Below, piece by piece: positions 3,001 to 38,298 of a DNA stretch of 64,000 nt. The position numbers and the translations under genes were made by a program. The notes under the pieces were generated by a model that was not told the DNA's origin, did no database searches, and saw nothing but the letters and a program-made list of their open reading frames with translations. How positions within the stretch are numbered: the stretch's first letter is position 1; the number at the start of each line of letters is the position of its first letter. The stretch covers positions 496,001 through 560,000 of the forward strand of contig OZ249436.1 in the NCBI GenBank assembly GCA_965235115.1. Reading direction: 5' to 3'. The DNA comes from Laetmonice hystrix. Lineage: Eukaryota.

Positions 3001-3116
3001 GCGTCCGACAACGTTGTCAGGTCGTCCCAATGATTGTTTGCCGTAAAGGTTTAGTTAACAATGGCAAATGACGTTGTACGCCTTTTCTATATCAGATATC
3101 TCATCCCCAAGTACCA

Positions 3117-3148
<32 letters not shown>

Positions 3149-12100: not shown

Positions 12101-14787
12101 TCATGTTTACATGCCTTTATTGTCCAGGAGGCAGGCCATACGTTTCGTCTATCATCTACTTCCATCTAATCTGTGTCCCCTACAGACCATCTGTAAGCGT
12201 CCGACAACGTTGTCAGGTCGTCCCAATGATTGTTTGCCGTAAAGGTTTAGTTAACAATGGCAAATGGCGTTGTACGCCTTTTCTATATCAGATATCCCAT
12301 CCCCAAGTAACAAAGAAGGAAAGAAAGAAGGAATACACAGAGATGTTGCAGGCAGAAAACACCAGGGTGCAGCGCAGCTCCACTGAAGCGCGACGGCGGC
12401 GCTGACTGCACTGCCGCCTTCCGTCCGGCGGTGGAATCACCACGTACACCTGCCGGGCTGGCAGGCACCTGTGGCTCTTAGGCGAGAGACAGGTTAAAGC
12501 AATGATAAACGAAAAATGGGGTAGTCAAATTGAAACTACGCACCCGAAAATTATTATTCTTAGGCCAGATGTATAACTGTCAAGCGTATAGGTCTCGTAC
12601 GTTCGCTACAGATATATGGTTGTGATGTGTACACTTCCCATTTGAGTATCTTCTCCAGATTTTAACATTAGATGCTCCTGGCCTGGAACCTTTCATTGCC
12701 GCTACCTCACTGTAGTGTCTGCATGGCTACTATACGCCAGCCGGTAAGATTTAGGGACTTCTCACTCTACTGGTTGGCCTCCCACACAACTTGCCCCACA
12801 GTGTACTGTTTGGCCTCACTGTAGTGTTCGCTTGGATGCTAGGCCAGCCAGTAATACCTTGTAGGGATTCCTGCCTATACTGTTTGGCCTCCCTGTACCG
12901 TTTGCTTGTATACAAGAGTTGCCAGTAGTATAGGGACGCCTCATGTTCCATGTTTCCATGCCTTTATTGTCCAGGAGGCAGGCCGTACGTTTCGTCTATC
13001 ATCTACTTCCATCTAATCTGTGTCCCCTACAGACCATCTGTAAGCGTCCGACAACGTTGTCAGGTCGTCCCAATGATTGTTTGCCGTAAAGGTTTAGTTA
13101 ACAATGGCAAATGGCGTTGTACGCCTTTTCTTTATCAGATATCCCATCCCCAAGTAACAAAGAAGGAAAGAAAGAAAGAATACACAGAGATGTTGCAGGC
13201 AGAAAACACCAGGGTGCAGCGGAGCTCCACTGAAGCGCGACGGCGGCGCTGACTGCACTGCCGCCTTCCGTCCGGCGGTGGAATCACCACGTACACCTGT
13301 CGGGCTGGCAGGCACCTGTGGCTCTTAGGCGAGAGACAGGTTAAAGCAATGATAAGCGAAAAATGGGGAAGTCAAATTGAAACTAGGCACCCGAAAATTA
13401 TTATTCTTAGGCCAGATGTATAACTGTCAAGCGTATAGGGCTCGCCTGGAACCTTTCATTGCCGCTACCTCACTGTAGTGTCTGCATGGCTACAATAGGC
13501 CAGCCGGTAAGATTTAGGGACTTTTCACTCTACTGGTTGGCCTCCCACACAACTTGCCCCACAGTGTACTGTTTGGCCTCACTGTACACTTTGGCCTCAC
13601 TGTAGTGTTCGCTTGGATGCTAGGCCAGCCAGTAATACCTTGTAGGGATTCATGCCTGTACTGTTTGGCCTCCCTGTACCGTTTGCTTGTATACAAGAGT
13701 TGCCAGTAGTATAGGGACGCCTCATGTTTCATGTTTACATGCCTTTATTGTCCAGGAGGCAGGCCATACGTTTCGTCTATCATCTACTTCCATCTAATCT
13801 GTGTCCCCTACAGACCATCTGTAAGCGTCCGACAACGTTGTCAGGTCGTCCCAATGATTGTTTGCCGTAAAGGTTTAGTTAACAATGGCAAATGGCGTTG
13901 TACGCCTTTTCTATATCAGATATCCCATCCCCAAGTAACAAAGAAGGAAAGAAAGAAAGAATACACAGAGATGTTGCAGGCAGAAAACACCAGGGTGCAG
14001 CGCAGCTCCACTGAAGCGCGGCGGCGGCGCTGACTGCACTGCCGCCTTCCGTCCGGCGGTGGAATCACCACGTACACCTGCCGGGCTGGCAGGCACCTGT
14101 GGCTCTTAGGCGAGAGACAGGTTAAAGCAATGATAAAAGAAAAATGGGGTAGTCAAATTGAAATTACGCACCCGAAAATTATTATTCTTAGGCCAGATGT
14201 ATAACTGTCAAGCGTATAGGTCTCGTACGTTCGCTACAGATATATGGTTGTGATGTGTACACTTCCCATTTGAGTATCTTCTCCAGATTTTAACATTAGA
14301 TGCTCCTGGCCTGGAACCTTTCATTGCCGCTACCTCACTGTAGTGTCTGCATGGCTACAATAGGCCAGCCGGTAAGATTTAGGGACTTCTCACTCTACTG
14401 GTTGGCCTCCCACACAACTTGCCCCACAGTGTACTGTTTGGCCTCACTGTAGTGTTCGCTTGGATGCTAGGCCAGCCAGTAATACCTTGTAGGGATTCCT
14501 TCCTGTACTGTTTGGCCTCCCTGTACCGTTTGCTTCTATGCAATAGTTGCCAGTAGTATAGGGACGCCTCATGTTTCATGTTTCCATGCCTTTATTGTCC
14601 AGGAGGCAGGCCATACGTTTCGTCTATCATCTACTTCCATCTAATCTGTGTCCCCTACAGACGATCTGTAAGCGTCCGACAACGTTGTCAGGTCGTCCCA
14701 ATGATTGTTTGCCGTAAAGGTTTAGTTAACAATGGCAAATGGCGTTGTACGCCTTTTCTATATCAGATATCCTATCCCCAAGTAACA

Positions 14788-14835
<48 letters not shown>

Positions 14836-15691
14836 ATACACAGAGATGTTGCAGGCAGAAAACACCAGGGTGCAGCGCAGTTCCACTGAAGCGCGACGGC
14901 GGCGCTGCCTGCACTGCCGCCTTTCGGCCAGCGGTGGAATCACCACGTACACCTGCCGGGCTGGCAGGCACCTGTGGCTCTTAGGCGATAGACAGGTTAA
15001 AGCAATGATAAGCGAAAAATGGCTACATTTTTGGTACGTCAATTTGAAACTAGGCACCCCAAAATTATTATTCTTTGGCCAGATGTATAACTGTCAAACG
15101 TATAGGTCTCGTACGTTCGCTACAGATATATGGTTGTGATGTGTACACTTCTCATTTGAGTATCTTCTCCAGATTTTAACATTAGATGCTCCTGGCCTGG
15201 AACCTTTCATTGCCGCTACCTCACTGTAGTGTCTGCATGGCTACTATACGCCAGCCGGTAAGATTTAGGGACTTCTCACTCTACTGGTTGGCCTCCCACA
15301 CAACTGGCCCCACAGTGTACTGTTTGGCCTCACTGTACACTTTGGCCTCACTGTAGTGTTCGCTTGGATGCTAAGCCAGCCAGTAATACCTTGTAGGGAT
15401 TCCTGCCTATACTGTTTGGCCTCCCTGTACCGTTTGCTTGTATACAAGAGTTGCCAGTAGTATAGGGACGCCTCATGTTTCATGTTTCCATGCCTTTATT
15501 GTCCAGGAGGCAGGCCATACGTTTCGTCTATCATCTACTTCCATCTAATCTGTGTCCCCTACAGACCATCTGTAAGCGTCCGACAACGTTGTCAGGTCGT
15601 CCCAATGATTGTTTACCGTAAAGGTTTAGTTAACAATGGCAAATGGCGTTGTACGCCTTTTCTATATCAGATATCCTATCCCCAAGTAACA

Positions 15692-15723
<32 letters not shown>

Positions 15724-17058
15724 ATACACAGAGATGTTGCAGGCAGAAAACACCAGGGTGCAGCGCAGTTCCACTGAAGCGCGACTGCGGCGCTGACTGC
15801 ACTGCCGCCTTCCGGCCAGCGGTGGAATCACCACGTACACCTGCCGGGCTGGCAGGCACCTGTGGCTCTTAGGCGATAGACAGGTTAAAGCAATGATAAG
15901 CGAAAAATGGCTACATTTTTGGTAAGTCAAATTGAAACTACGCACCCCAAAATTATTATTCTTTGGCCAGAAGTATAACTGTCAAACGTATAGGTCTCGT
16001 ACGTTCGCTACAGATATATGGTTGTGATGTGTACACTTCTCATTGGAGTATCTTCTCCAGATTTTAACATTAGATGCTCCTCGCCTGGAACCTTTCATTG
16101 CCGCTACCTCACTGTAGTGTCTGGATGGCTACTATAGGCCAGCCGGTAAGATTTAGGGACTTCTCACTCTACTGGTTGTCCTCCCACACAACTTGCCCCA
16201 CAGTGTACTATTTGGCCTCACTGTACACTTTGGCCTCACTGTAGTGTTCGCTTGGATGCTAGGCCAGCCAGTAATACCTTGTAGGGATTCCTGCCTGTAC
16301 TGTTTGGCTTCCCTGTACCGTTTGCTTGTATACAAGAGTTGCCAGTAGTATAGGGACGCCTCATGTTTCATGTTTCCATGCCTTTATTGTCCAGGAGGCA
16401 GGCCATACGTTTCGTCTATCATCTACTTCCATCTAATCTGTGTCCCCTACAGACCATCTGTAAGCGTCCGACAACGTTGTCAGGTCGTCCCAATGATTGT
16501 TTGCCGTAAAGGTTTAGTTAACAATGGCAAATGGCGTTGTACGCCTTTTCTATATCAGATATCCTATCCCCAAGTAACAAAGAAAGAAAGAAAGAAAGAA
16601 TACACAGAGATGTTGCACGCAGAAAACACCAGGGTGCACTGAAGCGCGACGGCGGCGCTGACTGCACTGCCGCCTTCCGTCCGGCGGTGGAATCACCACG
16701 TACACCTGCCGGGCTGGCAGGTCCCTGTGGCTCTTAGGCGAGAGACAGGTTAAAGCAATGATAAGCGAAAAATGGGGTAGTCAAATTGAAACTACGCACC
16801 CCAAAATTAGTATTCTTAGGCCAGATGTATAACTGTCAAGCGTATAGGTCTCGTACGTTCGCTACAGATATATGGTTGTGATGTGTACACTTCCCATTTG
16901 AGTATCTTCTCCAGATTTTAACATTAGATGCTCCTCGCCTGGAACCTTTCATTGCCGCTACCTCACTGTAGTGTCTGCATGGCTACTATAGGCCAGCCGG
17001 TAAAATTTAGGGACTTCTCACTCTACTGGTTGGCCTCCCACACTACTTGCCCCATAGT
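1..17058. repeat. Large tandem satellite, ~850-885 bp unit, about 20 copies, runs off the left edge
   Basis: Unit start ATGCTCCT(C/G)GCC recurs at 1, 870, 1736, 2611, 3489, 4360, 5226, 6109, 6959, 7835, 8708, 10131, 10978, 11825, 12672, 14300, 15186, 16074, 16928, plus truncated starts near 9475 and 13440. Nearly every unit carries a variable (GAAA)n tract. The array ends abruptly at ~17058. Confidence 0.99.
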
Positions 17059-17697
17059 AGACGTATCTGGTTAATGTTTAGCACACTCCCCCCCCCCCCC
17101 TGGGATTTTGAGGCAGACTACGGCCCTTGTATCGTATCGTGGCACGAGTGTATCACGAGTGTATCATTTCAACCGAGTTGAAATTGTGTCTTAATTAATT
17201 TAAATTATAGTGGTGCCCATTAAACCTTCCGATGTGCAGTGTTTAATTATTTCGCACGTTCCTAAATTACGCCTGGGACGATGGAACGTCACCTATCAGA
17301 AAGAGACCGTGTCAGAAGGTGGCAAAAAATCTTGAATGGAGTTCGTGAGTTCTGCTTAGTGTGAATGACCCTTTTAAAGGTGAAATCTAAATGAGCTGGA
17401 TGCCCTTTTGTTGATCAGAAAACACACGGCCGTATCCCGATATACATGTGAGTTATGGGTTATTCATGGCCACTTTGGCCTTGTCCTTGTTTCCATTGGT
17501 TCCTTAATGTGCGATGAAAAGAGGCAAATGGGGGAAAATACAGACGGGCAATATGCCCGCTACTGTAGGCCTCGTGTCATTGAGAAGAAATTGCTCTGCG
17601 TACAATCCCGTGCACGTAAACCCACCTATTGTCCTGCGATCAGGTACACAACAACGCCATGCAGCTCTCCCCCACACGTTTCGACTTGTCCAAAGCA

Positions 17698-17755
17698 TGC
17701 TGCTGCTGCTGCTGCTGCTGCTACTACTACTACTACTACTACTGCTGCTGCTGTT
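17698..17755. repeat. Compound trinucleotide microsatellite (TGC)n(TAC)n(TGC)n
   Basis: Read directly in sequence. Confidence 0.95.
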
Positions 17756-18440
17756 GAAGTTGCTGAGTTGAGCGCGCGCCCGTCAGGACTACCTGACGTC
17801 TGCGACGGTCCGCAGACGTTGTCAAGGTGTCGCCGACGTGCCGTCACGACTTGCACGTCTTCAACACGTCGTACGGCGTGTCAGTCATCATCCTGCAGCA
17901 GCTCAACTAGAGGTGTGACAGTGTCAGAGAGCACATCGCCATGTTGTCAGATACGAACGATGTTCACGAGGCCGGTAAGACTAGTCATCATCTCTCTGCT
18001 CACGTTTATATTGAATTTCTGCCCAGTGCGGCGCGGGACTGTTGCCATCCTGCACAAGCACTCAACAGTTGCTGGAGCTTGGGTGGGCGAGTTGAACGGT
18101 CCTCTTGATTCAAGTGATAGGTTAGTGATGCTCCCATCATACACAAATTGCGTCCATACTGGATTCGTCCTACGGTAGCAAATTAATTTTAGCAAAGGGA
18201 AGATCTACATGAAGTTGTGACGATTATGTTTTTTTTTTTTAATTCTAGACACCCCCCCACACACACACACTACAATGGTATTCATTATCGTCGTGCCTTT
18301 TGAACGGATGGCGCCTTGGGTAACCTTTGGCTTAAGCTCAGAGCCGGGCCATGATTTTTACATTTCATTTTTTCCCTTATTTTTAATTTTTGATTATATA
18401 GCTTTCATTTTATAGTTGGAACGTTGTCTCACCTTTAAAG

Positions 18441-18577
18441 ACGTTGTGATCAATCCCGAGATAGATGAATGCCATGTGTGGGCATGAGCCTATAGTACAG
18501 AATTGTTTTACGTTGTGATCAGTCCCGAGATAGATGAATGCCATGTGTGGGCATGAGCCTATAGTACAGAATTGTTG
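18441..18577. repeat. Two-copy ~69-bp direct repeat
   Basis: ACGTTGTGATCA..CCCGAGATAGATGAATGCCATGTGTGGGCATGAGCCTATAGTACAGAATTGTT occurs twice, ending just before a candidate acceptor TTGTAG at ~18580. Confidence 0.9.
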
Positions 18578-18680
18578 TAGAATAGACGACAGAACCAGGA
18601 ACTCCAAGGTTTCACCTGTTACGTGTAAAAAGGAAATAACAACATTGAAATTTCTCGGTTAACCATCTTCACACTGAGCC

Positions 18681-18744
18681 ATGTTACCGGCCAGTGACGG
18701 ATCCAACCAACTTTGGACCAGTATACATTCTGACAGCACAGTGG
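18681..18744 (+). CDS. Ankyrin-repeat protein, coding exon 1 (MLPASDGSNQLWTSIHSDSTV)
   Basis: gccATG at 18681, open frame to G|GTGAGT donor at 18745; phase 1 matches exon 2 and gives the ankyrin-like TSIH..AFAGD..LKRLI segment. Confidence 0.7.
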
Positions 18745-21013
18745 GTGAGTGATTACTATAGGCCTCTCTTTAACTTGGGACCAGTATACAGTCTGAGATC
18801 ACAGTAGATGAGTGATTACTATAGGCCTCTCTTTAACTTGGGACCAGTATACAGTCTGATACAGTGGATGAGTGATTACTATAGGCCTCTCTTTAACTTG
18901 GGACCAGTATACAGTCTGAGATCACAGTGGATGAGTGATTACTATAGGCCTCTCTTTAACTTGGGACCAGTATACAGTCTGAGATCACAGTGGATGAGTG
19001 ATTACTATAGGCCTCTCTTTAACTTGGGACCAGTATACAGTCTGAGATCACAGTGGATGAGTGATTACTATAGGCCTCTCATTAACTTGGGACCAGTATA
19101 CAGTCTGAGATCACAGTGGATGAGTGATTACTATAGGCCTCTCTTTAACTTGGGACCAGTATACAGTCTGAGATCACAGTGGATGAGTGATTACTATAGG
19201 CCTCTCTTTAACTTGGGACCAGTATACAGTCTGAGATCACAGTGGATGAGTGATTACTATAGGCCTCTCTTTAACTTTGGACCAGTATACAGTCTGAGAT
19301 CACAGTGGATGAGTGATTACTATAGGCCTCTCTTTAACTTGGGACCAGTATACAGTCTGAGATCACAGTGGATGAGTGATTACTATAGGCCTCTCTTTAA
19401 CTTGGGACCAGTATACAGTCTGAGATCACAGTGGATGAGTGATTACTATAGGCCTCTCTTTAACTTGGGACCAGTATACAGTCTGAGATCACAGTGGATG
19501 AGTGATTACTATAGGCCTCTCTTTAACTTGGGACCAGTATACAGTCTGAGATCACAGTGGATGAGTGATTACTATAGGCCTCTCATTAACTTGGGACCAG
19601 TATACAGTCTGAGATCACAGTAGATGAGTGATTACTATAGGCCTCTCTTTAACTTTGGACCAGTATACAGTCTGAGATCACAGTGGATGAGTGATTACTA
19701 TAGGCCTCTCTTTAACTTTGGACCAGTATACAGTCTGAGAGCACAGTGGATGAGTGGTTACTATAGGCCTCTCTTTAACTTGGGACCAGTATACAGTCTG
19801 AGATCACAGTGGATGAGTGATTACTATAGGCCTCTCTTTAACTTGGGACCAGTATACAGTCTGAGATCACAGTGGATGAGTGATTACTATAGGCCTCTCT
19901 TTAACTTGGGACCAGTATACAGTCTGATACAGTGGATGAGTGATTACTATAGGCCTCTCTTTAACTTGGGACCAGTATACAGTCTGATACAGTGGATGAG
20001 TGATTACTATAGGCCTCTCTTTAACTTGGGACCAGTATACAGTCTGAGATCACAGTGGATGAGTGATTACTATAGGCCTCTCTTTAACTTGGGACCAGTA
20101 TACAGTCTGATACAGTGGATGAGTGATTACTATAGGCCTCTCTTTAACTTGGGACCAGTATACAGTCTGAGATCACAGTGGATGAGTGATTACTATAGGC
20201 CTCTCTTTAACTTGGGACCAGTATACAGTCTGATACAGTGGATGAGTGGTTACTATAGGCCTCTCTTTAACTTGGGACCAGTATACAGTCTGATACAGTG
20301 GATGAGTGATTACTATAGGCCTCTCTTTAACTTTGGACCAGTATACATTCTGACAGCACAGTGGATGAGTGATTACTATAGGCCTCTCTTTAACTTGGGA
20401 CCAGTATACAGTCTGAGATCACAGTGGATGAGTGATTACTATAGGCCTCTCTTTAACTTGGGACCAGTATACAGTCTGAGATCACAGTGGATGAGTGATT
20501 ACTATAGGCCTCTCTTTAACTTGGGACCAGTATACAGTCTGAGAGCACAGTGGATGAGTGATTACTATAGGCCTCTCTTTAACTTTGGACCAGTATACAG
20601 TCTGAGATCACAGTGGATGAGTGGTTACTATAGGCCTCTCTTTAACTTTGGACCAGTATACAGTCTGAGATCACAGTGGATGAGTGATTACTATAGGCCT
20701 CTCTTTAACTTGGGACCAGTATACAGTCTGATACAGTGGATGAGTGATAACTATAGGCCTCTCTTTAACTTGGGACCAGTATACAGTCTGAGATCACAGT
20801 GGATGAGTGATTACTATAGGCCTCTCTTTAACTTGGGACCAGTATACAGTCTGATACAGTGGATGAGTGATTACTATAGGCCTCTCTTTAACTTTGGACC
20901 AGTATACAGTCTGAGAGCACAGTGGATGAGTGATTACTATAGGCCTCTCTTTAACTTTGGACCAGTATACAGTCTGAGATCACAGTGGATGAGTGATTAC
21001 TATAGGCCTCTCT
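18708..21013. repeat. 63/60-bp minisatellite, ~37 copies, unit spans the exon-1 3' end and donor
   Basis: Unit AACTTGGGACCAGTATACAGTCTGAGATCACAGTGGATGAGTGATTACTATAGGCCTCTCTTT; first copy overlaps exon 1. Confidence 0.99.
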
Positions 21014-21695
21014 TATCGACATTATCATGCGGAGTCCTCCTATAGGTTGCAGACGTGTGCATTTTCCTCGAATGGACCTGTCTGAAATTATCAGGCCCAT
21101 ACGAATCTAAACTAAAAAAGCCAGATGTTTGTTTTTCGCGTATTATAATTTCATTAGTGCAGTGTACAATTAATTGTTACTGTAATGTTTACATTAAGTT
21201 ATTGGCGAATGAACTGTCAGTAATTTAATATAAATTTTACAAGAATATTTTTACACTAATTACTGTTATTTAGCTTTTCTGTAATTGGTGTTTACATTAA
21301 AGAATTTTTACTGTAATTTTCACATTAAGTTATTGGCGAATGAGCTGCCAGTAACTTAATGTAAATATTACAAGAAATCTTTTACAGTGCACGTACACTG
21401 TATAAAGTTGGCAGAGATTGGCCCGAGTCTAGTTCATGGTGAGGTTATCCATATATAAAGATAAACATTTATAAACATATATAAACATAAACATATTTTT
21501 ATTTCGGTTACCTAGGCAACCATTCCTTTCTCTAGTACTAGTAAGGGGCCGACCCCCCCCCCCGCCTCCTGTCAGTTCAAGTCTCTCGTTAAAGGAAGGG
21601 GGTTAGGACCGTAAAGACAAATGCGAATTTGCGAATTAATGCGAACGACAGGAGGAATTGTCATGTAACTAAAGATGATTTCTTTCTTGTTACAG

Positions 21696-21748
21696 CTTTT
21701 GCTGGTGATATCCGACATCTTAAGAGGTTGATCAATACATGCAATGAG
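21696..21748 (+). CDS. Ankyrin-repeat protein, coding exon 2 (AFAGDIRHLKRLINTCNE)
   Basis: Acceptor TTTCTTGTTACAG, 53-nt exon, donor GAG|GTAAGG; phase 1 in, phase 0 out; joins exon 3 to give NTCNE-NVNLQDRVGQTPLH. Confidence 0.85.
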
Positions 21749-24066
21749 GTAAGGATGGCAAACCGGGGCAGGGAGGGGTAAGGATTGCAAACCGGGGCAG
21801 GGAGGGGTGAGGATGGCAAACCGGGGCAGGGAGGGGTAAGGATGGCAAACCGGGGCAGGGAGAGGTAAGGATGGCAAACCGGGGCAGGGAGAGGTAAGGA
21901 TGGCAAACCGGGGCAGGGAGAGGTGAGGATGGCAAACCGGGGCAGGGAGGGGTGAGGATGACAAACCGGGGCAGGGAGGGGTCAGGATGGCAAACCGGGG
22001 CAGGGAGGGGTAAGGATGGAAAACCGGGGCAGGGAGAGGTGGGGATGGCAAACCGGGACAGGGAGAGGTGAGGATGGCAAACCGGGGCAGGGAGAGGTGA
22101 GGATGGCAAACCGGGGCAGGGAGGGGTGAGGATGGCAAACCGGGGCAGGGAGGGGTAAGGATGGAAAACCGGGGCAGGGAGAGGTGGGGATGGCAAACCG
22201 GGACAGGGAGAGGTGAGGATGGCAAACCGGGGCAGGGAGAGGTGAGGATGGCAAACCGGGGCAGGGAGAGGTAAGTATGGCAAACCGGGGCAGGGAGAGG
22301 TGAGGATGGCAAACCGGGGCAGGGAGAGGTGAGGATGGCAAACCGGGGCAGGGAGAGGTGGGGATGGCATACCGGGGCAGGGAGAGGTGAGGATGGCAAA
22401 CCGGGGCAGGGAGAGGTGAGGATAGCAAACCGGGGCAGGGAGAGGTGAGGATGGCAAACCGGGGCAGGGAGGGGTGAGGATGGCAAACCGGGGCAGGGAG
22501 GGGTGAGGATGGCAAACTGGGGCAGGGAGGGGTAGGGATGGCAAACCGGGGCAGGGAGGGGTAGGGATGGCAAACCGGGGCAGGGAGGGGTAAGGATGGC
22601 AAACCGGGGCAGGGAGAGGTGAGGATGGCAAACCGGGGCAGGGAGGGGTAAGGATGGCAAACCGGGGCAGGGAGAGGTGAGGATGGCAAACCGGGGCAGG
22701 GAGAGGTAAGGATGGCAAACCGGGGCAGGGAGGGGTCAGGATGGCAAACCGGGGCAGGGAGGGGTAAGGATGGAAAACCGGGGCAGGGAGAGGTGGGGAT
22801 GGCAAACCGGGACAGGGAGAGGTGAGGATGGCAAACCGGGGCAGGGAGAGGTGAGGATGACAAACCGGGGCAGGGAGAGGTGAGGATGACAAACCGGGGC
22901 AGGGAGAGGTGAGGATGACAAACCGGGGCAGGGAGAGGTGAGGATGACAAACCGGGGCAGGGAGAGGTGAGGATGACAAACCGGGGCAGGGAGAGGTGAG
23001 GATGACAATCCGGGGCAGGGAGGGGTAAGGATGGCAAACCGGGGCAGGGAGAGGTAAGGATGGCAAACCGGGGCAGGGAGGGGTAAGGATGGCAAACCGG
23101 GGCAGGGAGGGGTAAGGATGGCAAACCGGGGCAGGGAGGGGTAAGGATGGCAAACCGGGGCAGGGAGGGGTGAGGATGGCAAACCGGGGCAGGGAGGGGT
23201 AGGGATGGCAAACCGGGGCAGGGAGGGGTAAGGATGGCAAACCGGGGCAGGGAGAGGTAAGGATGGCAAACCGGGGCAGGGAGGGGTGAGGATGGCAAAC
23301 CGGGGCAGGGAGGGGTAAGGATGGCAAACCGGGGCAGGGAGAGGTGAGGATGGCAAACCGGGGCAGGGAGGGGTAAGGATGGCAAACCGGGGCAGGGAGG
23401 GGTCAGGATGGCAAACCGGGGCAGGGAGAGGTAAGGATGGCAAACCGGGGCAGGGAGGGGTGAGGATGGCAAACCGGGGCAGGGAGAGGTGAGGATGACA
23501 AACCGGGGCAGGGAGAGGTGAGGATGACAATCCGGGGCAGGGAGGGGTGAGGATGGCAAACCGGGGCAGGGAGAGGTGAGGATGGCAAACCGGGGCAGGG
23601 AGAGGTAAGGATGGCAAACCGGGGCAGGGAGAGGTGAGGATGGCAAACCGGGGCAGGGAGAGGTGAGGATGACAAACCGGGGCAGGGAGAGGTAAGGATG
23701 GCAAACCGGGGCAGGGAGGGGTGAGGATGGCAAACCGGGGCAGGGAGAGGTAAGGATGGCAAACTGGGGCAGGGAGGGGTAGGGATGGCAAACCGGGGCA
23801 GGGAGGGGTGAGGATGGCAAACCGGGGCAGGGAGGGGTAAGGATGGCAAACCGGGGCAGGGAGGGGTGAGGATGGCAAACCGGGGCAGGGAGGGGTAAGG
23901 ATGGCAAACCGGGGCAGGGAGGGGTGAGGATGGCAAACCGGGGCAGGGAGGGGTAAGGATGGCAAACCGGGGCAGGGAGAGGTTAGGATGGCAAACCGGG
24001 GCAGGGAGGGGTAGGGATGGCAAACCGGGGCAGGGAGGGGTGAGGATGGCAAACCGGGGCAGGGAG
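21746..24066. repeat. 29-bp G-rich minisatellite, ~80 copies, starts at the exon-2 donor
   Basis: Unit G(A/G)GGT(A/G)AGGATGGCAAACCGGGGCAGGGA. Confidence 0.99.
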
Positions 24067-24442
24067 TAAGTATGTCAGTCCCAAAGATTTTACCATGTTT
24101 GATATCACTGGCGGGTCCAGGATTTCAAGAAAGGGAGGTTCCACTTTTTGGTGGATAACGTGTGCCCCTTTTTCGGGGGAGGGGGGGGGGTCTGGGGGCC
24201 CAAGTGACAGGCCAGGCCAGGACAGGACAGTGACAAGTGGCCGGTCGGACGGCCCGCTGCTGCCAGTGGCCTATCCTGACCCCACAGCCAGCCACAGATC
24301 CTAACAACTGCTGAGATGGAATGTTTCAAGCCCTGTCTTCTCGAGCACGTAATGATATATAACCTTGGTTATTACAAAGTTGTATGACTGTGTCAATGAC
24401 TATCTACATCGTTTGGCCCAGAACAGGGCGGGCCAGATCTGT

Positions 24443-25000
24443 GGTGTTATTAAATATTTGAAGTAGGCGTAGATATTTCAACCTGTTTCTTACTGTGTTA
24501 TTATTAAATATCTGAATGCTGTAGGCGTATATTTCAACCTGTTTCTTACTGTGTTATTATTAAATATCGGAATGTTGTAGGCGTATATTTCAACCTGTTT
24601 CTTACTGTGTTATTATTAAATATCGGAATGTTGTAGGCGTATATTTCAACCTGTTTCTTACTGTGTTATTATTAAATATCGGAATGTTGTAGGCGTATAT
24701 TTCAACCTGTTTCTTACTGTGTTATTATTAAATATCGGAATGTTGTAGGCGTATATTTCAACCTGTTTCTTACTGTGTTATTATTAAATATCGGAATGTT
24801 GTAGGCGTATATTTCAACCTGTTTCTTACTGTGTTATTATTAAATATCTGAATGCTGTAGGCGTATATTTCAACCTGTTTCTTACTGTGTTATTATTAAA
24901 TATCGGAATGTTGTAGGCGTATATTTCAACCTGTTTCTTACTGTGTTATTATTAAATATCTGAATGTTGTAGGCGTATATTTCAACCTGTTTCTTACTGT
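24443..25000. repeat. 56-bp AT-rich minisatellite, ~10 copies (ankyrin gene intron 2)
   Basis: Unit GTGTTATTATTAAATATCGGAATGTTGTAGGCGTATATTTCAACCTGTTTCTTACT. Confidence 0.97.
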
Positions 25001-25461
25001 AGACGGACAGGTCTCGATCCCGTGTCTGGTCCCCCACCCCTTATAAAATTATGTTGGTGTTGGTCATAATCTGTATTTCCATTGACTGTTGTTATAGAAT
25101 AACTATACCCTTAACATTTTCTCCTGACTTTAGTCTCAGTAACACCATTTTGGATACCAATTGAGATGGGAGTATTTTTATGGGGGAAACGGGTGGATTA
25201 AATCAATTTTATTATGGCATGGTGGAAATAAAAGGAGGTTGATTTTTTTTCGGATTGGCAAGACAACATTTAATATTCATATCGTTCATAACGATATCAG
25301 TATACCAGTAATTGTTATTGATATCATTAATAACGAGAGCTTAGTAAGATTTCGCATCAAGAAGGATTCCTGCTTAAATCTAGCATTTCTCTGATTGGCT
25401 GGTTCGATCAGCCAATCAGAATTCCAGAAAAACTTAAATGTTGAACGCCCGGAGCGTGAGG

Positions 25462-25962
25462 CTGATTACATGGGGTTTCTTTACTCAGAACGTCAACCTT
25501 CAGGACCGGGTGGGTCAGACGCCCTGATTTACATGGGGTTTCTTTACTCAGAACGTCAACCTTCAGGACCGGGTGGGTCAGACGCCCTGATTTACATGGG
25601 GTTTCTTTACTCAGAACGTCAACCTTCAGGACCCGGTGGGTCAGACGCCCTGATTTACATGGGGTTTCTTTACTCAGAACGTCAACCTTCAGGACCCGGT
25701 GGGTCAGACGCCCTGATTTACATGGGGTTTCTTTACTCAGAACGTCAACCTTCAGGACCGGGTGGGTCAGACGCCCTGATTTACATGGGGTTTCTTTACT
25801 CAGAACGTCAACCTTCAGGACCCGGTGGGTCAGACGCCCTGATTTACATGGGGTTTCTTTACTCAGAAAGTCAACCTTCACGACCCGGTGGGTCAGACGC
25901 CCTGATTTACATGGGGTTTTACTCAGAACGTCAACCTTCAGGACCGGGTTGGTCAGACGCCC
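25462..25962. repeat. 63-bp minisatellite, 8 copies, unit spans the exon-3 acceptor
   Basis: Unit CTGATTTACATGGGGTTTCTTTACTCAG|AACGTCAACCTTCAGGACCGGGTGGGTCAGACGCC; the last copy continues into exon 3. Confidence 0.98.
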
Positions 25963-26050
25963 CTGCACAAGGCCGCCATGAACGGATGGTTGGAATGTGT
26001 GAACCTTCTACTGGAGAAAGGCGCCCATGTGTCCTCGTCCGATATCTCAG
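25927..26050 (+). CDS. Ankyrin-repeat protein, coding exon 3 (NVNLQDRVGQTPLHKAAMNGWLECVNLLLEKGAHVSSSDIS)
   Basis: Canonical ankyrin motif G-x-TPLH-x-AA-xx-G-xxx-CV-x-LLLE-x-GA-x-V; acceptor TTTTACTCAG, donor CAG|GTGAGC. Confidence 0.93.
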
Positions 26051-26129
26051 GTGAGCCAGCCCACTATAATCTCACGCTCTGGGTTAATAGCTTTTATAAT
26101 ATTCTCCTTATTTTTTGTAAACAGACAAA

Positions 26130-26568
26130 CATGTGTATTGTCGACCTTTATAAAGGGCATGTGTGTATTGTCGACCTTTATAAAAGCCATGTGTATTGTC
26201 GACCTTTATAAAGACCATGTGTATTGTCGACCTTTATAAAGGCCATATGTGTATTGTCGACCTTTATAAAGACCATGTGTATTGTCGACCTTTATAAAGG
26301 CCATATGTGTATTGTCGACCTTTATAAAGACCATGTGTATTGTCGACCTTTATCAAGGCCATGTGTATTGTCGACCTTTATAAAGGCCATATGTGTATTG
26401 TCGACCTTTATAAAGACCATGTGTATTGTCGACCTTTATAAAGGCCATGTGTATTGTCGACCTTTATAAAGACCATGTGTATTGTCGACCTTTATAAAGA
26501 CCATGTGTATTGTCGACCTTTATAAAGGCCATGTGTATTGTCGACCTTTATAAAGACCATGTGTATTG
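26130..26568. repeat. 28/30-bp minisatellite, ~15 copies
   Basis: Unit ATGTGTATTGTCGACCTTTATAAAG(A/G)CC with internal palindromes GTCGAC and CTTTATAAAG. Confidence 0.97.
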
Positions 26569-27019
26569 ATGAAAGCCACAGAACCGGGTAGTATATCGAT
26601 ATATTTGTAGATGGAGGTCTCCACGACGGACTTTCTGTGGCCTTATTTTACCTGTCGCTGCTACACGTACCCGCCACCCCCTGCCCGGACGCCCCCACCC
26701 CCTGCCCGGACGCCCCCTCCCCGGACGCCCCCACCCCCTCCCCGACCGCCCCCTCCCTGGACGCGGATACATGATGAGTGGTCCTTTGATTAGTGACCGT
26801 TTATAGCAGAGATCAAATCCCCGTGCGCTTGGTGTTATTACAGTCCGTGACGTGTTGTAAGCGCTGCCTTCTGTACCCGCCAGTAACGTCAGCATTGATC
26901 TCTGTCACTGCAACTCTGGGTGGAGAGGGCAAAATACACAGAGCAAAAATATATAAACAACATTCAAATAACTTTTATCACTGTTGTATCTCTTTGACAT
27001 TGTACAACTGCATCTAAAT

Positions 27020-30000
27020 TGGCTACACCTAGTGTACCAGGTATATGTACCCCCCATCAACCTGTGGCTACACGTAGTGTACCCAGATATATGTACCCCC
27101 CCCCCCCATCAACCTGTGGCTACACGTAGTGTACCCAGGTACATGTACCCCCCCCCCCCATCAACCTGTGGCTACACGTAGTGTACCCAGGTACATGTAC
27201 CCCCCCCCATCAACCTGTGGCTACACGTAGTGTGCCCAGATATATGTACCCCCCCATCAACCTGTGGCTACACGTAGTGTACCCAGGTACATGTACCCCC
27301 CCCATCAACCTGTGGCTACACGTAGTGTACCCAGATATATGTACCCCCCCATCAACCTGTGGCTACTCGTAGTGTACCCAGGTATATGTACCCCCCCCCA
27401 TCCACCTGTGGCTACTCGTAGTGTACCCAGGTATATGTACCCCCCCCCATCAACCTGTGGCTACACGTAGTGTACCCAGATATATGTACCCCCCATCAAC
27501 CTGTGGCTACACGTAGTGTACCCAGGTATATGTACCCCCCCCCCCATCAACCTGTGGCTACTCGTAGTGTACCCAGGTATATGTACCCCCCCCCATCAAC
27601 CTGTGGCTACTCGTAGTGTACCCAGGTATATGTACCCCCCCCCCATCAACCTGTGGCTACTCGTAGTGTACCCAGGTATATGTACCCCCCCCTTCAACCT
27701 GTGGCTACTCGTAGTGTACCCAGGTATATGTACCCCCCCCCCATCAACCTGTGGCTACTCGTAGTGTACCCAGGTATATGTACCCCCCCCCCATCAACCT
27801 GTGGCTACACGTAGTGTACCCAGGTATATGTACCCCCCCCCCCCCATCAACCTGTGGCTACTCGTAGTGTACCCAGGTATATGTACCCCCCCCATCAACC
27901 TGTGGCTACTCGTAGTGTACCAGGTATATGTACCCCCCCCATCAACCTGTGGCTAGTCGTAGTGTACCCAGGTATATGTACCACCCCCTCATCAACCTGT
28001 GGCTACTCGTAGTGTACCCAGGTATATGTACCACCCACCCCCCCCCCCCCCATCAACCTGTGGCTACTCGTAGTGTACCAGGTATATGTACCCCCCCCCC
28101 TCATCAACCTGTGGCTACTCGTAGTGTACCCAGGTATATGTACCCCCCCCCATCAACCTGTGGCTACTCGTAGTGTACCAGGTATATGTACCCCCCACCC
28201 CCATCAACCTGTGGCTACTCGTAGTGTACCCAGATATATGTAGCCCCCCCCCCATCAACCTGTGGCTACTCGTAGTGTACCCAGATATATGTACCCCCCC
28301 CCATCAACATGTGGCTACACGTAGTGTACCCAGGTATATGTACCCCCCCCCCTCATCAACCTGTGGCTACTCGTAGTGTACCCAGGTACATGTATCCCCC
28401 CCATCAACCTGTGGCTACTCGTAGTGTACCCAGGTATATGTACCCCCCCCCCCCCATCAACCTGTGGCTACTCGTAGTGTACCCAGATATATGTACCCCC
28501 CCCCCCATCAACATGTGGCTACACGTAGTGTACCCAGGTATATGTACCCCCCCCCCTCATCAACCTGTGGCTACTCGTAGTGTACCCAGGTACATGTATC
28601 CCGCCCCCCCCCCATCAACCTGTGGCTACTCGTAGTGTACCCAGGTATATGTACCCCCCCATCAACCTGTGGCTACACGTAGTGTACCCAGGTACATGTA
28701 ACCCCCCCATCAACCTGTGGCTACTCGTAGTGTACCCAGGTATATGTACCCCCCCCCCATCAACCTGTGGCTACACGTAGTGTACCCAGGTACATGTACC
28801 CCCCCCCATCAACCTGTGGCTACACGTAGTGTACCCAGGTACATGTACCCCCCACCCCGTCCCATCAACCTGTGGCTACACGTAGTGTACCCAGATATAT
28901 GTACCCCCCCCCCCCCATCAACCTGTGGCTACACGTAGTGTACCCAGGTACATGTACCCCCCCCCCAATCAACCTGTGGCTACACGTAGTGTACCCAGGT
29001 ACATGTACCCCCCATCAACCTGTGGCTACACGTAGTGTACCCAGGTACATGTACCCCCCCCCCCCATCAACCTGTGGCTACACGTAGTGTACCCAGGTAT
29101 ATGTACCCCCCCCCCCATCAACCTGTGGCTACTCGTAGTGTACCCAGGTATATGTACCCCCCCCCCATCAACCTGTGGCTACACGTAGTGTACCCAGATA
29201 TATGTACCCCCCCTCATCAACCTGTAGCTACACGTAGTGTACCCAGGTATATGTACCCCCCCCCCCATCAACCTTTGGCTACTCGTAGTGTACCCAGGTA
29301 TATGTACCACCCCCCCCCCCCATCAACCTGTGGCTACTCGTAGTGTACCCAGGTATATGTACCCCCCCCCCATCAACCTGTGGCTACACGTAGTGTACCA
29401 GGTATATGTACCCCCCCCCCTCATCAACCTGTGGCTACTCGTAGTGTACCCAGGTACATGTACCCCCCCATCAACCTGTGGCTACTCGTAGTGTACCAGG
29501 TATATGTACCCCCCCCCCCATGAACCTGTGGCTACTCGTAGTGTACCCAGGTATATGTACCCCCCCCCCCATCAACCTGTGGCTACTCGTAGTGTACCCA
29601 GGTACATGTACCCCCACCCCCCCCATCAACCTGTGGCTACACGTAGTGTACCCAGGTACATTTACCCCCCCCCCCCCCCATCAACCTGTGGCTACACGTA
29701 GTGTACCAGGTATAGGTACACCCCCCCATCAACCTGTGGCTACTCGTAGTGTACCCAGGTACATGTACCCCCCCCCCATCAACCTGTGGCTACTCGTAGT
29801 GTACCCAGGTACATGTACCCCCCCCCCCCCCATCAACCTGTGGCTACACGTAGTGTACCAGGTATATGTACCCCCCCATCAACCCGTGGCTACTCGTAGT
29901 GTACCCAGGTATATGTACCCCCCCCCCCCATCAACCTGTGGCTACTCGTAGTGTACCCAGGTATATGTACCCCCCCCCCATCAACCTGTGGCTACTCGTA

Positions 30001-30538
30001 GTGTACCCAGGTATATGTACCCCCCCCCCCCCATCAACCTGTGGCTACTCGTAGTGTACCCAGGTATATGTACCCCCCCCCTCATCAACCTGTGGCTACT
30101 CGTAGTGTACCCAGGTACATGTACCCCCCCCCCCCCATCAACCTGTGGCTACACGTAGTGTACCAGGTATATGTACCCCCCCCCCCCCCATCAACCTGTG
30201 GCTACTCGTAGTGTACCCAGGTATATGTACCCCCCCCCATCAACCTGTGGCTACACGTAGTGTACCCAGGTACATGTACCCCCCCCCCCCATCAACCTGT
30301 GGCTACACCTAGTGTACCCAGGTATATGTACCCCCCCCCATCAACCTGTGGCTACACGTAGTGTACCCAGGTATATGTACCCCCCCCCCCATCAACCTGT
30401 GGCTACACGTAGTGTACCCAGGTATATGTACCCCCCACCCCACCCCACCCCCCATCAACCTGTGGCTACTCGTAGTGTACCCAGGTATATGTACCCCCCA
30501 CCCCATCAACCTGTGGCTACTCGTAGTGTACCCAGGTA
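27020..30538. repeat. ~48-52-bp minisatellite with variable poly-C tract, ~70 copies
   Basis: Unit ATCAACCTGTGGCTAC(A/T)CGTAGTGTACCCAGGTA(T/C)ATGTA(C)n. Confidence 0.99.
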
Positions 30539-31081
30539 CTAAGTGGTAATTCCGAGATCACCACAATTTTTTTCTCTGAACGCGATTAACTCGTAATAAT
30601 GACTTAGTGACGTCATTAAGTCGTAATAACGAGTTCATGACGTCACTAAGTGGTAATTTCGAAATCACCAAAATTTGTAGTGATCTCGAAATTAAGGTTA
30701 AGATCCAAGGTATCGTCCCATTTTACCGCATTCGCCTCTCGTTGTGTCTCTATTAATATATCTGAAATAAAAAAGAGTAAGTCTTGTAAATTGTAACTAC
30801 TCTAATGTCTGTGGCGGATGGGGGTTGAATACGAGCCGCTTTTTTCTTTTTCTTTCTTTCTTTTTTTCTTCTTTTTGTCATTTATGGGAGATCACTAGCA
30901 AAAAAGCCATGTGAAAATGATCACTTTTGACATTTTATTTGATACCTCATTTTGTGCTCCACAGCTGCAACTGCCCAAGACCATACAGGAATGGAGGATT
31001 TAAATTTATTGTGGGTGAAAATGAAGAAACGCCCCATGACATTTAGAATGAGGATGTGTTTAAAGATATCTATTGTTCCAG

Positions 31082-31252
31082 GTTGTACCGCCCTACATCT
31101 TGCCGCTGCTAACGGTTACCGCGAAACTGCTCAATTTCTGATAGAAAAAGGTCACGCCAACATGAACCATACGACAAACAAAGGTCAAACTCCTCGCTAC
31201 ATGGCCAAGTCACGAGGTCAGATGCACATGGTTGCCTTCTTCAACGACATGG
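31082..31252 (+). CDS. Ankyrin-repeat protein, coding exon 4 (GCTALHLAAANGYRETAQFLIEKGHANMNHTTNKGQTPRYMAKSRGQMHMVAFFNDM)
   Basis: Ankyrin motifs GCTALHLAA..NG and GQTP; acceptor TTGTTCCAG, donor G|GTAGGT; phase 1 matches exon 3. Confidence 0.93.
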
Positions 31253-31282
31253 GTAGGTATACAGCTAGGGGGGGGGGGGGTG

Positions 31283-31997
31283 CAGGGGCGGATCCAGGAT
31301 TTTCCCTTAGGGGGCCCTACCGGGACGGGGTTAGCCTATATTTGGCAAAGCCATGAAACTGCACATAGGACATTTGGGGGATGGGGGGGGGATTACCCTG
31401 AAGCTGAGACCTGTGAAGTACTAAAATAAATTGAAAATAATTAAAGGGGCATATTATGAGGAAACGTTAAAAAACGGTATTTCATAGAACTTTTGCTGTT
31501 TTCATAAAGGGATCCTTCATTAAAATTGCTTGGTAAACAAAGACAGACTTATCAGTTTCATTTTGCGTGAGAAATCGAAGTTTATTAAGCTCCCTTGCCC
31601 GCTTCTCTGCTGATTTCGTAAAATATTTTTTGGGTGGCATTCTGATGCCGGGCGATCGAGTGCCACTGCTGAATTGTTTACAACTAAGCAAAGCACGTGA
31701 CTAAGCACATGCAGAGAGTGCACACACAGGATGTGACACAGTATGCAATTACACGGGTTGATGGGAGGTTGTCCGCCAAATTATGGCGGGAGATGTGCTA
31801 TCGGGAGAAATCTATAGGTTTGGTCGTATAGAACCCACTTGTGCTGCATACGCAGCGAAAACACGTCGGAGGACAAAATGCTGTGGTAGGATTATTTACT
31901 TGGATCCCTAGTACACGGTCATGTTGGATAATTGCCGGAAATTAATTTTGTCCAAAATTTAGGTGGGCGGGCATCGCCCCCCCTAAATCCGCCTCTG
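31283..31997. mobile_element. Non-autonomous TIR DNA element (MITE-like), ~715 bp
   Basis: Left CAGGGGCGGATCCAGG, right CCTAAATCCGCCTCTG (imperfect inverted repeat); flanks GGGTG/GTGTG resemble a degenerate 5-bp TSD. Confidence 0.7.
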
Positions 31998-32028
31998 GTG
32001 TGTGTGCTTGGGTATAGGGATCTGGATG

Positions 32029-32215
32029 ACTGCCCCCTGCCCCTCCACGTGCTAGGTACTGCCCCCTGCCCCTCCACGTGCTAGGTACTGCCCCCTGCCC
32101 CTCCACGTGCTAGGTACTGCCCCCTGCCCCTCCACGTGCTAGGTACTGCCCCCTGCCCCTCCACCCCGTGCTAGGTACTGCCCCCTGCCCCTCCACGTGC
32201 TAGGTTTTCTGCCCT
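32029..32215. repeat. 29-bp minisatellite, ~6 copies
   Basis: Unit ACTGCCCCCTGCCCCTCCACGTGCTAGGT. Confidence 0.95.
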
Positions 32216-32218
32216 GAT

Positions 32219-32384
32219 CAGGGCCGTGCCCAGCGATTGGTGCAGGGGGGGTTACTGGTGCAGGTGAGGGGGTTACAGTGGACAGATCCAATTGTTAGGA
32301 CCTAAAAAAAACTAAAAATAAAAAAATCTTTGGCACCCAGGGGGGGTTACAGACACCCCCCCCCCCCCCCCGGGCACGGCCCTG
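32219..32384. mobile_element. Small MITE with 13-bp TIR and 5-bp TSD
   Basis: CTGAT|CAGGGCCGTGCCC ... GGGCACGGCCCTG|CTGAT. Confidence 0.85.
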
Positions 32385-32479
32385 CTGATTACTTTTTAGT
32401 TATACATCTAAATCCACACGTGTCGGCCTTTACTTCGCCAGGAGCTAATATTGACATTTATACTGGTCTGTATTTTTAG

Positions 32480-32511
32480 AAAACAAGTTAACCAATAAGT
32501 GGCTCGCCTAG
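32480..32511 (+). CDS. Ankyrin-repeat protein, probable terminal coding exon 5 (ENKLTNKWLA*)
   Basis: Acceptor TGTATTTTTAG at 32479, phase 1 matches exon 4, TAG at 32509-32511; total CDS 444 nt = 147 aa. No motif support, so less certain. Confidence 0.6.
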
Positions 32512-32760
32512 TGCGGTTGGCATGGCGACCATCAGAAGACTGTAACTCGTGGCGTTTGGACATGTCGACAAGGCACACCTACGTACGTACGAGGACGCTG
32601 ATGACGTCAGAGATGCTCAGGTGAGCGTCTCAGCGGATGGATACATGTCGTCGGTGGACGCCCGGGACTTCAAAGACCTCCTTCAAGCCGTGCTAGCGGC
32701 GGGTTGACACCAGAACGCCACTCTTTCTTCCGCCCGCCTGGTGCTAAATCTAGACATGCC

Positions 32761-33244
32761 AACATCCTTACAAAAGCTGCTAGTGGTGGATCCAGCCAAT
32801 AACATCCTTACAAAAGCTGCCAGTGGTGGATCCAGCCAATAACGTACATCCTTACAAAAGCTGCCAGTGGTGGATCCAGCCAATAACATCCTTACAAAAG
32901 CTGCCAGTGGTGGATCCAGCCAATAACATCCTTACAAAAGCTGCCAGTGGTGGATCCAGCCAATAACATCCTTACAAAAGCTGCCAGTGGTGGATTCAGC
33001 CAATAACATCCTTACAAAAGCTGTCAGTGGTGGATCCAGCCAATAACATCCTTACAAAAGCTGCCAGTGGTGGATCCAGCCAATAACATCCTTACAAAAG
33101 CTGCCAGTGGTGGATCCAGCCAATAACATCCTTACAAAAGCTGCCAGTGGTGGATCCAGCCAATAACATCCTTACAAAAGCTGTCAGTGGTGGATCCAGC
33201 CAATAACATCCTTACAAAAGCTGCCAGTGGTGGATCCAGCCAAT
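32761..33244. repeat. 40-bp minisatellite, ~12 copies, unit spans a MITE junction
   Basis: Unit AACATCCTTACAAAAGCTGCCAGTGGTGGATCCAGCCAAT. Confidence 0.97.
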
Positions 33245-33341
33245 TTTTCTTTTTTTCTCCATTGACCATGCTTAACCAACCCCCCCCCCCCCCCCCTCCA
33301 AGCAAATTTCCCCCCTTACCAAAATCGTGGATCCGCCGCTG
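33225..33341. mobile_element. Small MITE with 14-bp TIR and 5-bp TSD
   Basis: GCTGC|CAGTGGTGGATCCA ... TGGATCCGCCGCTG|GCTGC. Confidence 0.8.
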
Positions 33342-33726
33342 GCTGCATATGCCTACCTATTACTCACATTAGAGCCGTTTTGCCTTGCGTAAATAACAGG
33401 ATGTTTTCATTATCGAATGCTGTTTACTTATTAATGTGAATAATTGAGAATGGATCGGGAGATTTGTGTCAGGCGGAGGATGTTCAGATTGGCCATCAAT
33501 GACATGTGGTGCTGTGGTGCTGAAATATCAATTCTATGGGACAAATCACTCCACTCTCTTATGCAAGGGGTCATACGAGAAAGGGGCAAATGTAGATTTG
33601 CCCCATTTTTAATGATTTACGTCACTTCATTTTCAATGTTTTATGCTGCCCTCCTATCTGCCATTTAACCTTTCTTTCTTTTTGGGCTTCTTCTTTCGGT
33701 GAAATTATATGGCAAAATATTGCATT

Positions 33727-36267: not shown

Positions 36268-36461
36268 ATACAATATCACTGCCTGGACGGTATGTATACA
36301 ATATCACTGCCTGGTCGGTATGTATACAATATCACTGCCTGGTCGGTATGTATACAATATCACTGCCTGGTCGGTATGTATACAATATCACTGCCTGGTC
36401 GGTATGTATACAATATCACTGCCTGGTCGGTATGTATACAATATCACTGCCTGGTCGGTAT
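36268..36461. repeat. 28-bp minisatellite, ~7 copies
   Basis: Unit ATACAATATCACTGCCTGGTCGGTATGT. Confidence 0.95.
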
Positions 36462-37747: not shown

Positions 37748-38055
37748 TTAAAATTGAGGCAGCTTCATAATAACCTTCTCTAACACATCAACTTTACTGC
37801 CAATGTTTCTCACTTCAATGTGGTCTCTGTAAACATGAGCCGTAGCATGAGACTTGGTGCCCTCTGGTGCTTCAACGACAGCTCTCATAGTAACATGGTG
37901 GACGCCATGATCATCAATGGCATACCCACCGTCATGGTCGTGTCCGGAGATATATGCAACGACACAACTGTACTTGTTTATCACAGACAGAATGTCAGGG
38001 TAGTTCCACATGAGGCACAGGCGACACGTACTGGGTTCATACAGAGGCTGGTGAC
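37748..38055 (-). CDS. ADPRM: Mn-dependent ADP-ribose/CDP-alcohol diphosphatase, last coding exon
   Basis: Minus-strand acceptor TTGTTTTTTAG; encodes GHQPLY..LMWNY..AYISGHDHDGGY..VEAP, the metallophosphoesterase H and GHxH motifs; stop ends at 37748. Confidence 0.93.
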
Positions 38056-38298
38056 CTAAAAAACAATTCGGTTTACATTATTGTCAAAATCTTTGACTCT
38101 GCATGGATTCCACGCTATCAGCTTTCCCAAATTCCCAGACTTTTTCCATGACCATAATACTATACATGATAATTTATGGTAATATATCCTATTGATTATC
38201 TAATATATTATTCTCAATGGAGGTCACACATGCTGCCAATGGTCATATTGATAGTAATATTAATAAATGATAATTAAACTGTCAAAGAAACCACTCAC

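Follow-up and report, generated by a model that had tools for sequence, protein, structure and literature searches.

Two minisatellite arrays straddle exon-intron junctions of a small ankyrin-repeat gene on the plus strand of a 64,000-nucleotide stretch of the Laetmonice hystrix genome (assembly GCA_965235115.1, contig OZ249436.1, positions 496,001 to 560,000; hereafter the window, whose numbering is used throughout). Judged by their sequence organisation, array A2 at the exon-2 donor and array A3 at the exon-3 acceptor are boundary-spanning minisatellites of the 'mirage' or F7 type, a kind already known, and they probably arose as a side effect of very intense local tandem duplication near the chromosome end. 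A preliminary description had counted three consecutive amplified junctions in this gene; the exon-2 donor and the exon-3 acceptor are indeed amplified, but the exon-1 donor is not, as alignment with three orthologs (3/3) places the true one at 17974. The gene model and its arrays are as follows.

17941..17974, plus strand: exon 1, taken as the true first coding exon (11 codons and 1 nt), with donor CCG/GTAAGA (9.5 bits), outside all arrays and carrying the motif of the orthologs
18681..18744, plus strand: exon 1 of the preliminary description, not a conserved exon and at most an alternative first exon, with the cryptic donor TGG/GTGAGT (4.7 bits) in A1 unit 1
18709..21014, no strand assigned: array A1, 63 bp x 37.0, wholly within intron 1
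21696..21748, plus strand: exon 2 (53 nt), with donor GAG/GTAAGG (10.8 bits) in the first A2 unit
21746..24066, plus strand: array A2, 29 bp x 80.0, with units of 3 exonic and 26 intronic nt and 79 decoy donors, all GT
24463..25000, no strand assigned: array of 56 bp x 9.6, wholly within intron 2
25462..25962, plus strand: array A3, 63 bp x 8.0, with units of 27 intronic and 36 exonic nt and 7 decoy acceptors, all AG
25927..26050, plus strand: exon 3 (124 nt, ankyrin repeat), with its acceptor in the last A3 unit
31082..31252, plus strand: exon 4 (171 nt, ankyrin repeats), with neither junction within an array
32480..32511, plus strand: exon 5, coding part to the TAG stop, with its acceptor outside arrays

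Boundary-spanning arrays at the two ends of intron 2

The three arrays first noticed in this gene are real, and Tandem Repeats Finder (TRF) resolves them as 63 bp x 37 (A1), 29 bp x 80 (A2) and 63 bp x 8 (A3). The exon-2 donor is located in the first A2 unit, which carries the true exonic flank and three exonic nucleotides, and the exon-3 acceptor is located in the last A3 unit, with 36 exonic nucleotides inside the array. Both arrays show the organisation of mirages: the units run head to tail, the terminal unit spans the authentic boundary, the extra units are intronic, and the exon-side unit differs from the homogenised interior. The last A3 unit, for instance, has private variants, and its pyrimidine tract (25900-25926) is 3 nt shorter than in the seven decoys.

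The junctions were located by a blind spliced alignment, run over 16500-33500 without any repeat information, which returned the same four introns with 3/3 orthologs (17974/21696, 21748/25927, 26050/31082 and 31252/32480). All the junctions listed in the preliminary description were recovered in this way except the donor at 18744. From homology with the three orthologs it follows that the exon-proximal copy is the conserved site in A2 and A3, as had been proposed; besides homology, geometry points the same way, because this is the only arrangement that would leave the protein intact.

Splice sites were scored with a matrix trained on 87 introns of the L. hystrix genome. All A2 decoys retain GT (79/79), and 10 of them score at least as high as the real donor (10.8 bits); the three nearest exon 2 are weak (6.9, 5.1 and 6.9 bits) and the one at 22271 is a full donor consensus. 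In A3 the AG is kept in 7/7 decoys, and all of them outscore the real acceptor, whose 2.7 bits fall short of the 5th percentile for true acceptors (3.2); the nearest decoy has 6.2 bits. The use of any decoy is predicted to lead to a premature stop, as had been suggested, both for the A2 donors (79/79) and for the A3 acceptors (7/7), each of which is in frame but reads into a TGA.

That the arrays are assembly artefacts is barely conceivable. In favour of it stands the fact that no short-read contig spans an array, and nothing more direct; the units carry interspersed variants, and contigs of the A1 unit reach depths of 408, 883 and 2004-2577 in three DNA runs, where single-copy contigs have 23-61, a comparison that covers the A1 unit in one sample, possibly the assembly's own.

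The first coding exon and array A1

Exons 3 and 4 match Pfam ankyrin models. With exon 4 as query a full-length ortholog, P0007, was found, which then led to P0011 and P0012 (Owenia), and the N-terminal motif [LI]-[HQ]-[ED]-A-A-F-[ST]-G is common to all three (3/3). Among the 163 candidates of the form ATG...GT between 16900 and 21695, 17941-17974 scores 24 without gaps against the N-terminus of P0007 and the next best scores 10, while the exon proposed earlier, 18681-18744, reaches a score of 3 and requires 10 gap positions. The donors differ likewise in strength (9.5 bits at 17974 vs 4.7 bits at 18744). On this comparison of sequences we place the first coding exon at 17941-17974 and not at 18681-18744. 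The five-exon frame reported before does add up to a stop-free 444 nt (64+53+124+171+32), but its exon 1 was mis-called, and the corrected open reading frame has 414 nt (137 aa). Arrays of the kinds seen here can mislead gene prediction.

Since the conserved donor lies at 17974, A1 falls wholly in intron 1 and spans no boundary; it begins 734 nt past this donor and ends 681 nt short of the acceptor at 21696. At the register of the donor claimed earlier, GT is present in 1/37 units, the first, and AT in 36/37, leaving 0/36 decoys with GT; A1 as a ladder of competing donors is ruled out by these counts. The best explanation, and as a whole a probable one, seems to be that A1 is a common intronic minisatellite and that the weak GT in its first unit, the most diverged one, is there by accident. 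The G at 18745 occurs solely in unit 1 of 37 and creates a weak donor downstream of an in-frame ATG, which is compatible with chance; a first-copy-only donor this strong appeared in 2/101 other intronic array-strand tests.

A rival view, which we consider very unlikely, takes 18681-18744 for a genuine alternative first exon (exon 1b); A1 would then be a donor mirage in which the GT was missing from the unit that became amplified. The confinement of GT to the exon-side unit and the rarity of comparable first-copy-unique donors (2/101) would fit such an exon, as would its upstream ATG, which is in frame, stop-free and in a GCC-ATG context, and the existence of one dynein array in which all 12 decoys are dead. 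Against this, ortholog support is 0/3, the exon would take the place of the conserved sequence with which the first ankyrin helix begins, its donor is weak (4.7 bits), and the observed/expected CpG ratio is 0.31 at 18500-19000 vs 0.80-0.99 at 17500-18500. Moreover, the gene holds seven intronic arrays, so that a 2% event is not rare. A cassette exon with its donor at 18744 was dismissed for the six upstream acceptors of best score, as no stop-free in-frame exon results from any of them.

A (TGC/TAC)n triplet run (17698-17753) is found about 190 nt 5' of the true start codon, and the CpG-rich stretch that holds it is likely a promoter or 5' untranslated region. Short-read DNA contigs over 17850-18770 run through intronic sequence (three runs, one sample). 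A look for RNA runs matching 31040-32760 turned up none among the runs listed. The protein (17941-32511) belongs to a small conserved, unnamed invertebrate family of 137-146 aa with an invariant C-terminal motif, which includes one full-length ortholog from Owenia fusiformis. A paralog with the same exon was not found in the L. hystrix genome, where one weak other match was the only one.

Arrays and splice sites in dynein genes

The window starts 0.5 Mb into a 73.8-Mb contig of a genome that comprises 627 Mb in 35 contigs. We use 'end-proximal' for a position near a contig end, a label that rests on contig position and not on telomere repeats. Within 17000-64000 of the window, 27 TRF arrays, A1, A2 and A3 among them, make up 24.1 kb. 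The array fraction of the gene span is 0.67 in the ankyrin gene, 0.50 and 0.65 in two end-proximal dynein heavy-chain genes, and 0.06 and 0.02 in two interstitial ones; over these four loci and the window, arrays are shown to be dense near contig ends and sparse in the interior.

The four dynein genes, found with PF12774, are 4 of about 18 loci in this genome and were picked by position. Their introns were mapped by spliced alignment to homologs, and those that were conflicting or weakly supported were dropped (kept: C18 36/36, C13 32/45, C29 47/61 and C1 40/49). Arrays spanning a splice site number 16/42 and 13/32 in the two end-proximal genes and 0/6 in the two interstitial ones. Counted by site, and with 23 further C18 introns included, 32/182 splice sites (17.6%) lie in arrays in the end-proximal dyneins vs 0/174 in the interstitial ones. 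At this rate, two amplified sites among the eight of the ankyrin gene are unremarkable (P(at least 2 of 8) = 0.42; P(at least 3 of 8) = 0.15). Within the ankyrin gene itself, 2/9 arrays span a junction vs 0.5-0.7 expected from its own introns (P 0.09-0.15).

Expected overlaps were simulated by collapsing the arrays, re-seeding them and rerunning TRF, with seeding either gene-wide (pooled null) or within the host intron (200 runs each); four 407-bp satellite blocks were left out, which gives 70 arrays. In this first set, 29/70 arrays span a boundary vs 10.0+-2.8 (pooled) and 19.7+-2.9 (within intron), a count reached by 0/200 simulations under each null. The within-intron excess faded when at least 10 exonic nt were required (26/200 simulations) and was reduced when partial copies were counted (22.6 expected, P 0.03). 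The replication set of 23 further C18 introns gives 3/28 arrays vs 2.8-5.6 expected and thus no excess, and the two sets differ (Fisher P 0.004). Combined, 32/98 arrays span a site with at least 1 exonic nt, which is 1.9-2.6 times the pooled expectation and 1.14-1.33 times that within introns (P 0.18 and 0.018); with at least 10 exonic nt the ratios become 1.5-2.2 and 0.9-1.14. Overall, the excess amounts to 1.5-2.7-fold under the pooled null and to 0.9-1.4-fold under seeding within host introns, in a heterogeneous sample of two genes from one family.

The suggestion that tandem amplification nucleates preferentially at exon edges is therefore neither shown nor excluded: the outcome depends on the null, and the replication set gives no excess. 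As an explanation for A2 and A3, such nucleation at or near boundaries, through splice-motif microhomology or through chromatin or transcription at exon edges, would leave an excess beyond random seeding even after selection. We regard it as unlikely, though it has some weight on its side. The count of the first set was matched by no simulation under either null, the combined pooled ratio is raised (1.9-2.6 at 1 exonic nt or more), and arrays span a site in 6/31 cases in long collapsed introns vs 2.1-2.7 expected (P 0.01-0.04). In addition, a G-T-A-A-G motif at the end of A2 is similar to the donor at the head of the array, which would be expected if the array arose through microhomology. These points are offset by the replication set, by a combined within-intron ratio of 1.14 with partial copies included (P 0.18) and of 0.9-1.14 at 10 or more exonic nt, by the dilution of the pooled null through a few long non-array intron stretches, and by a sample restricted to two genes of one family.

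Several further observations were made in the dynein genes. Boundary arrays are uneven along the C18 gene, with 16/42 in the central 50 kb vs 3/28 in the flanking parts. The four blocks of 407-bp satellite lie within a 19-kb intron (G000:C13:1140001-1155139). At G000:C6:15670526-15671838, two matches to the part 81-117 of the dynein AAA_6 profile, 1.2 kb apart, suggest a tandemly duplicated exon. In a quick dynein tree, with paralogs mixed and no lancelet row, the gene falls outside the clade of tunicates and vertebrates; its fork with molluscs and a flatworm is unresolved.

Decoy sites and a model for array formation

Across 31 boundary arrays (the first dynein set together with A2 and A3), 459/510 decoys keep their GT or AG, and in 251/510 the score equals or exceeds that of the real site. 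When the array consensus is compared with the real unit, the splice dinucleotide differs in 4/62 positions and other positions in 52/841 (Fisher P 0.79); selective silencing of decoys, an idea suggested by A1, was rejected on these figures. In one C18 dynein acceptor array all 12 decoys are mutated at the AG. Since decoys are not selectively silenced, it would be position rather than sequence that decides site choice. The unit length is a multiple of 3 in 10/31 boundary arrays, as chance predicts. Wholly exonic arrays number 0 vs about 14 expected, and their absence is consistent with purifying selection on those alone.

Arrays had also been proposed as a source of intron length, and this is borne out. 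Of the length that arrays have added, boundary arrays account for 21.3 of 44.5 kb in the first two dynein stretches and for 2.7 of 9.4 kb in the ankyrin gene; they add to intron growth as part of a general minisatellite expansion. Once the arrays are collapsed, the end-proximal introns have medians of 220 and 251 nt, similar to the 202 and 243 nt of the interstitial ones.

A model for A2 and A3 as by-products of local duplication activity would run as follows. Short duplications (20-120 bp) may be seeded at practically any point of a gene whose ancestral introns were short (about 200-250 nt) and then amplify, and a 45-bp seed in so short an intron would often touch a boundary. Seeds that straddle a junction could persist, given the pattern in which the exon-side unit keeps exon and site intact and the extra units fall into the intron. 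The spliceosome would take the exon-proximal site by exon definition or 5'-3' scanning, as the human F7 and lancelet data described below suggest, so that decoys need not mutate. Any leak to a decoy runs, by translation, into a premature stop, and nonsense-mediated decay (NMD) of such transcripts would be expected. In our analysis the most likely outcome would be use of the exon-proximal copy, with any leaked transcript degraded.

Certain points weigh against this account. The excess of the first dynein set was reached by no simulation, and the pooled null is still significant after the replication set is added (1.5-2.7-fold). A wholly exonic array could have escaped detection if it broke the alignment. 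Substantial leak to the A3 decoys is possible, the real acceptor being weaker than all seven. In the human 6-16 and CBS arrays, pseudo-sites close by are in fact used (PMC1557585). Even so, we consider the by-product account of A2 and A3 probable.

A regulatory role was also considered, in which array length or the order of variants would tune productive versus NMD-targeted splicing of the ankyrin gene, most plausibly at the weak exon-3 acceptor. It could draw on the premature stops behind all decoys, on the real exon-3 acceptor being the weakest of eight, and on the human ABCA7 variable number tandem repeat (VNTR), the length of which affects isoform levels (PMC5954066). We nevertheless find it highly improbable. 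Arrays occur on 17.6% of end-proximal dynein sites, and neither their decoys nor the frame show signs of selection, which fits a by-product; the F7 and lancelet decoys are reported silent (PMC1557585, PMC3087553).

The single locus adds little by itself, since boundary arrays are already on record for lancelets and humans and one of the three junctions first counted depended on a mis-called exon. The useful part is the measurement that about 18% of splice sites in two end-proximal genes lie in arrays and none in two interstitial ones, with decoys that lack selective silencing. From this measurement, the choice of the exon-proximal site would seem so robust, for acceptors as well as donors, that ladders of this kind are close to neutral. 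The choice of acceptor-side sites is testable in this genome with RNA, and the F7 work addressed donors only. A more far-reaching view, which we hold to be quite unlikely, is that end-proximal genes carry decoy ladders on about one sixth of their splice sites, with duplication biased to exon edges, boundary arrays as a main driver of intron growth there, and array alleles that set a measurable leak into NMD wherever the authentic site is weaker than its decoys, as at the exon-3 acceptor. If edge bias and allele-set leak were true, donors and acceptors would compete in thousands of natural experiments across this genome.

Other features of the window

Positions 1-17060 are occupied by about 20 head-to-tail copies of a satellite unit of about 850-890 bp with an internal AAAG microsatellite, which stops about 900 nt 5' of the ankyrin start codon. 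A metallophosphoesterase gene (Pfam Metallophos), which we take to be ADPRM-like, lies on the minus strand at 37748-39006, with coding exons at about 39006-38299 and 38055-37748 and a putative non-coding exon with its donor at 40373; 0/4 of its splice sites are in arrays. The 28-bp array at 36268-36461 was rejected as its last acceptor, as the frame ends at 37748. The 62-bp array at 39520-40171 offers minus-strand donors of 6.7 bits and was likewise discarded in favour of the predicted 12.4-bit donor outside the array at 40373. For the arrays at 48631, 52515-55739 and 61816, inspection of the ends by eye showed no evident exon-like open frame.

Comparison with known systems

Boundary arrays were at first thought to be an undescribed source of intron growth, but they are on record in lancelet mirages (PMC3087553, PMC3902484), in human F7 (PMC1557585) and in ABCA7 (PMC5954066). 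A genome-wide catalogue of splicing-associated repeats exists (PMC10078293), and variable internal tandem repeats have been described at exon-intron boundaries in human segmental duplications (PMC2812944). A genome-wide enrichment test for boundary arrays was not found in the literature searched, which is weak evidence of a gap as most subscription journals and supplements were outside its scope.

The term 'mirages' was given to tandem duplications of exon-intron boundaries in lancelet Adh3, and such arrays of donor and acceptor types are known there from Adh3, troponin C, the globins BflGb6 and BflGb9, and PGBD5; splicing is reportedly undisturbed by them, and they have been put forward as a way in which introns are gained (PMC3087553, PMC3902484). 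A2 and A3 resemble them in being boundary minisatellites of 5' and 3' types, in the many units that keep splice signals, in the exclusion of the boundary copies from homogenisation, and in unit sizes within the reported 10-160 bp. They differ in the higher copy number of A2 (80) and in the strong dependence on distance from the chromosome end seen here.

In the 37-bp VNTR of human F7 intron 7, splicing takes the donor furthest upstream except where a decoy matches the consensus perfectly, and 6-16, CBS, LMNB2 and PDGF are further human cases (PMC1557585). The anatomy of A2 is that of F7: the authentic donor and a few exonic bases (3 in A2, 4 in F7) are in the first unit, and pseudo-donors come after it. 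Unlike F7, with its 4-8 pseudo-sites, A2 has 79 of varying strength, one of them (22271) a full consensus, and the ankyrin gene has an additional acceptor-side array on the same intron.

The repeats of the segmental duplications are also boundary minisatellites that lengthen introns and can create alternative splicing; they occur in young paralogs, whereas the ankyrin gene is single-copy in its genome. In the 25-bp VNTR of ABCA7 intron 18, one retained unit leads to a premature stop, and length affects isoforms (PMC5954066). As in A2, that array starts at a donor, the retention of a unit means a frameshift and a premature stop, and the intron is enlarged severalfold; a difference is that the effect of length on splicing is a measured one in ABCA7.

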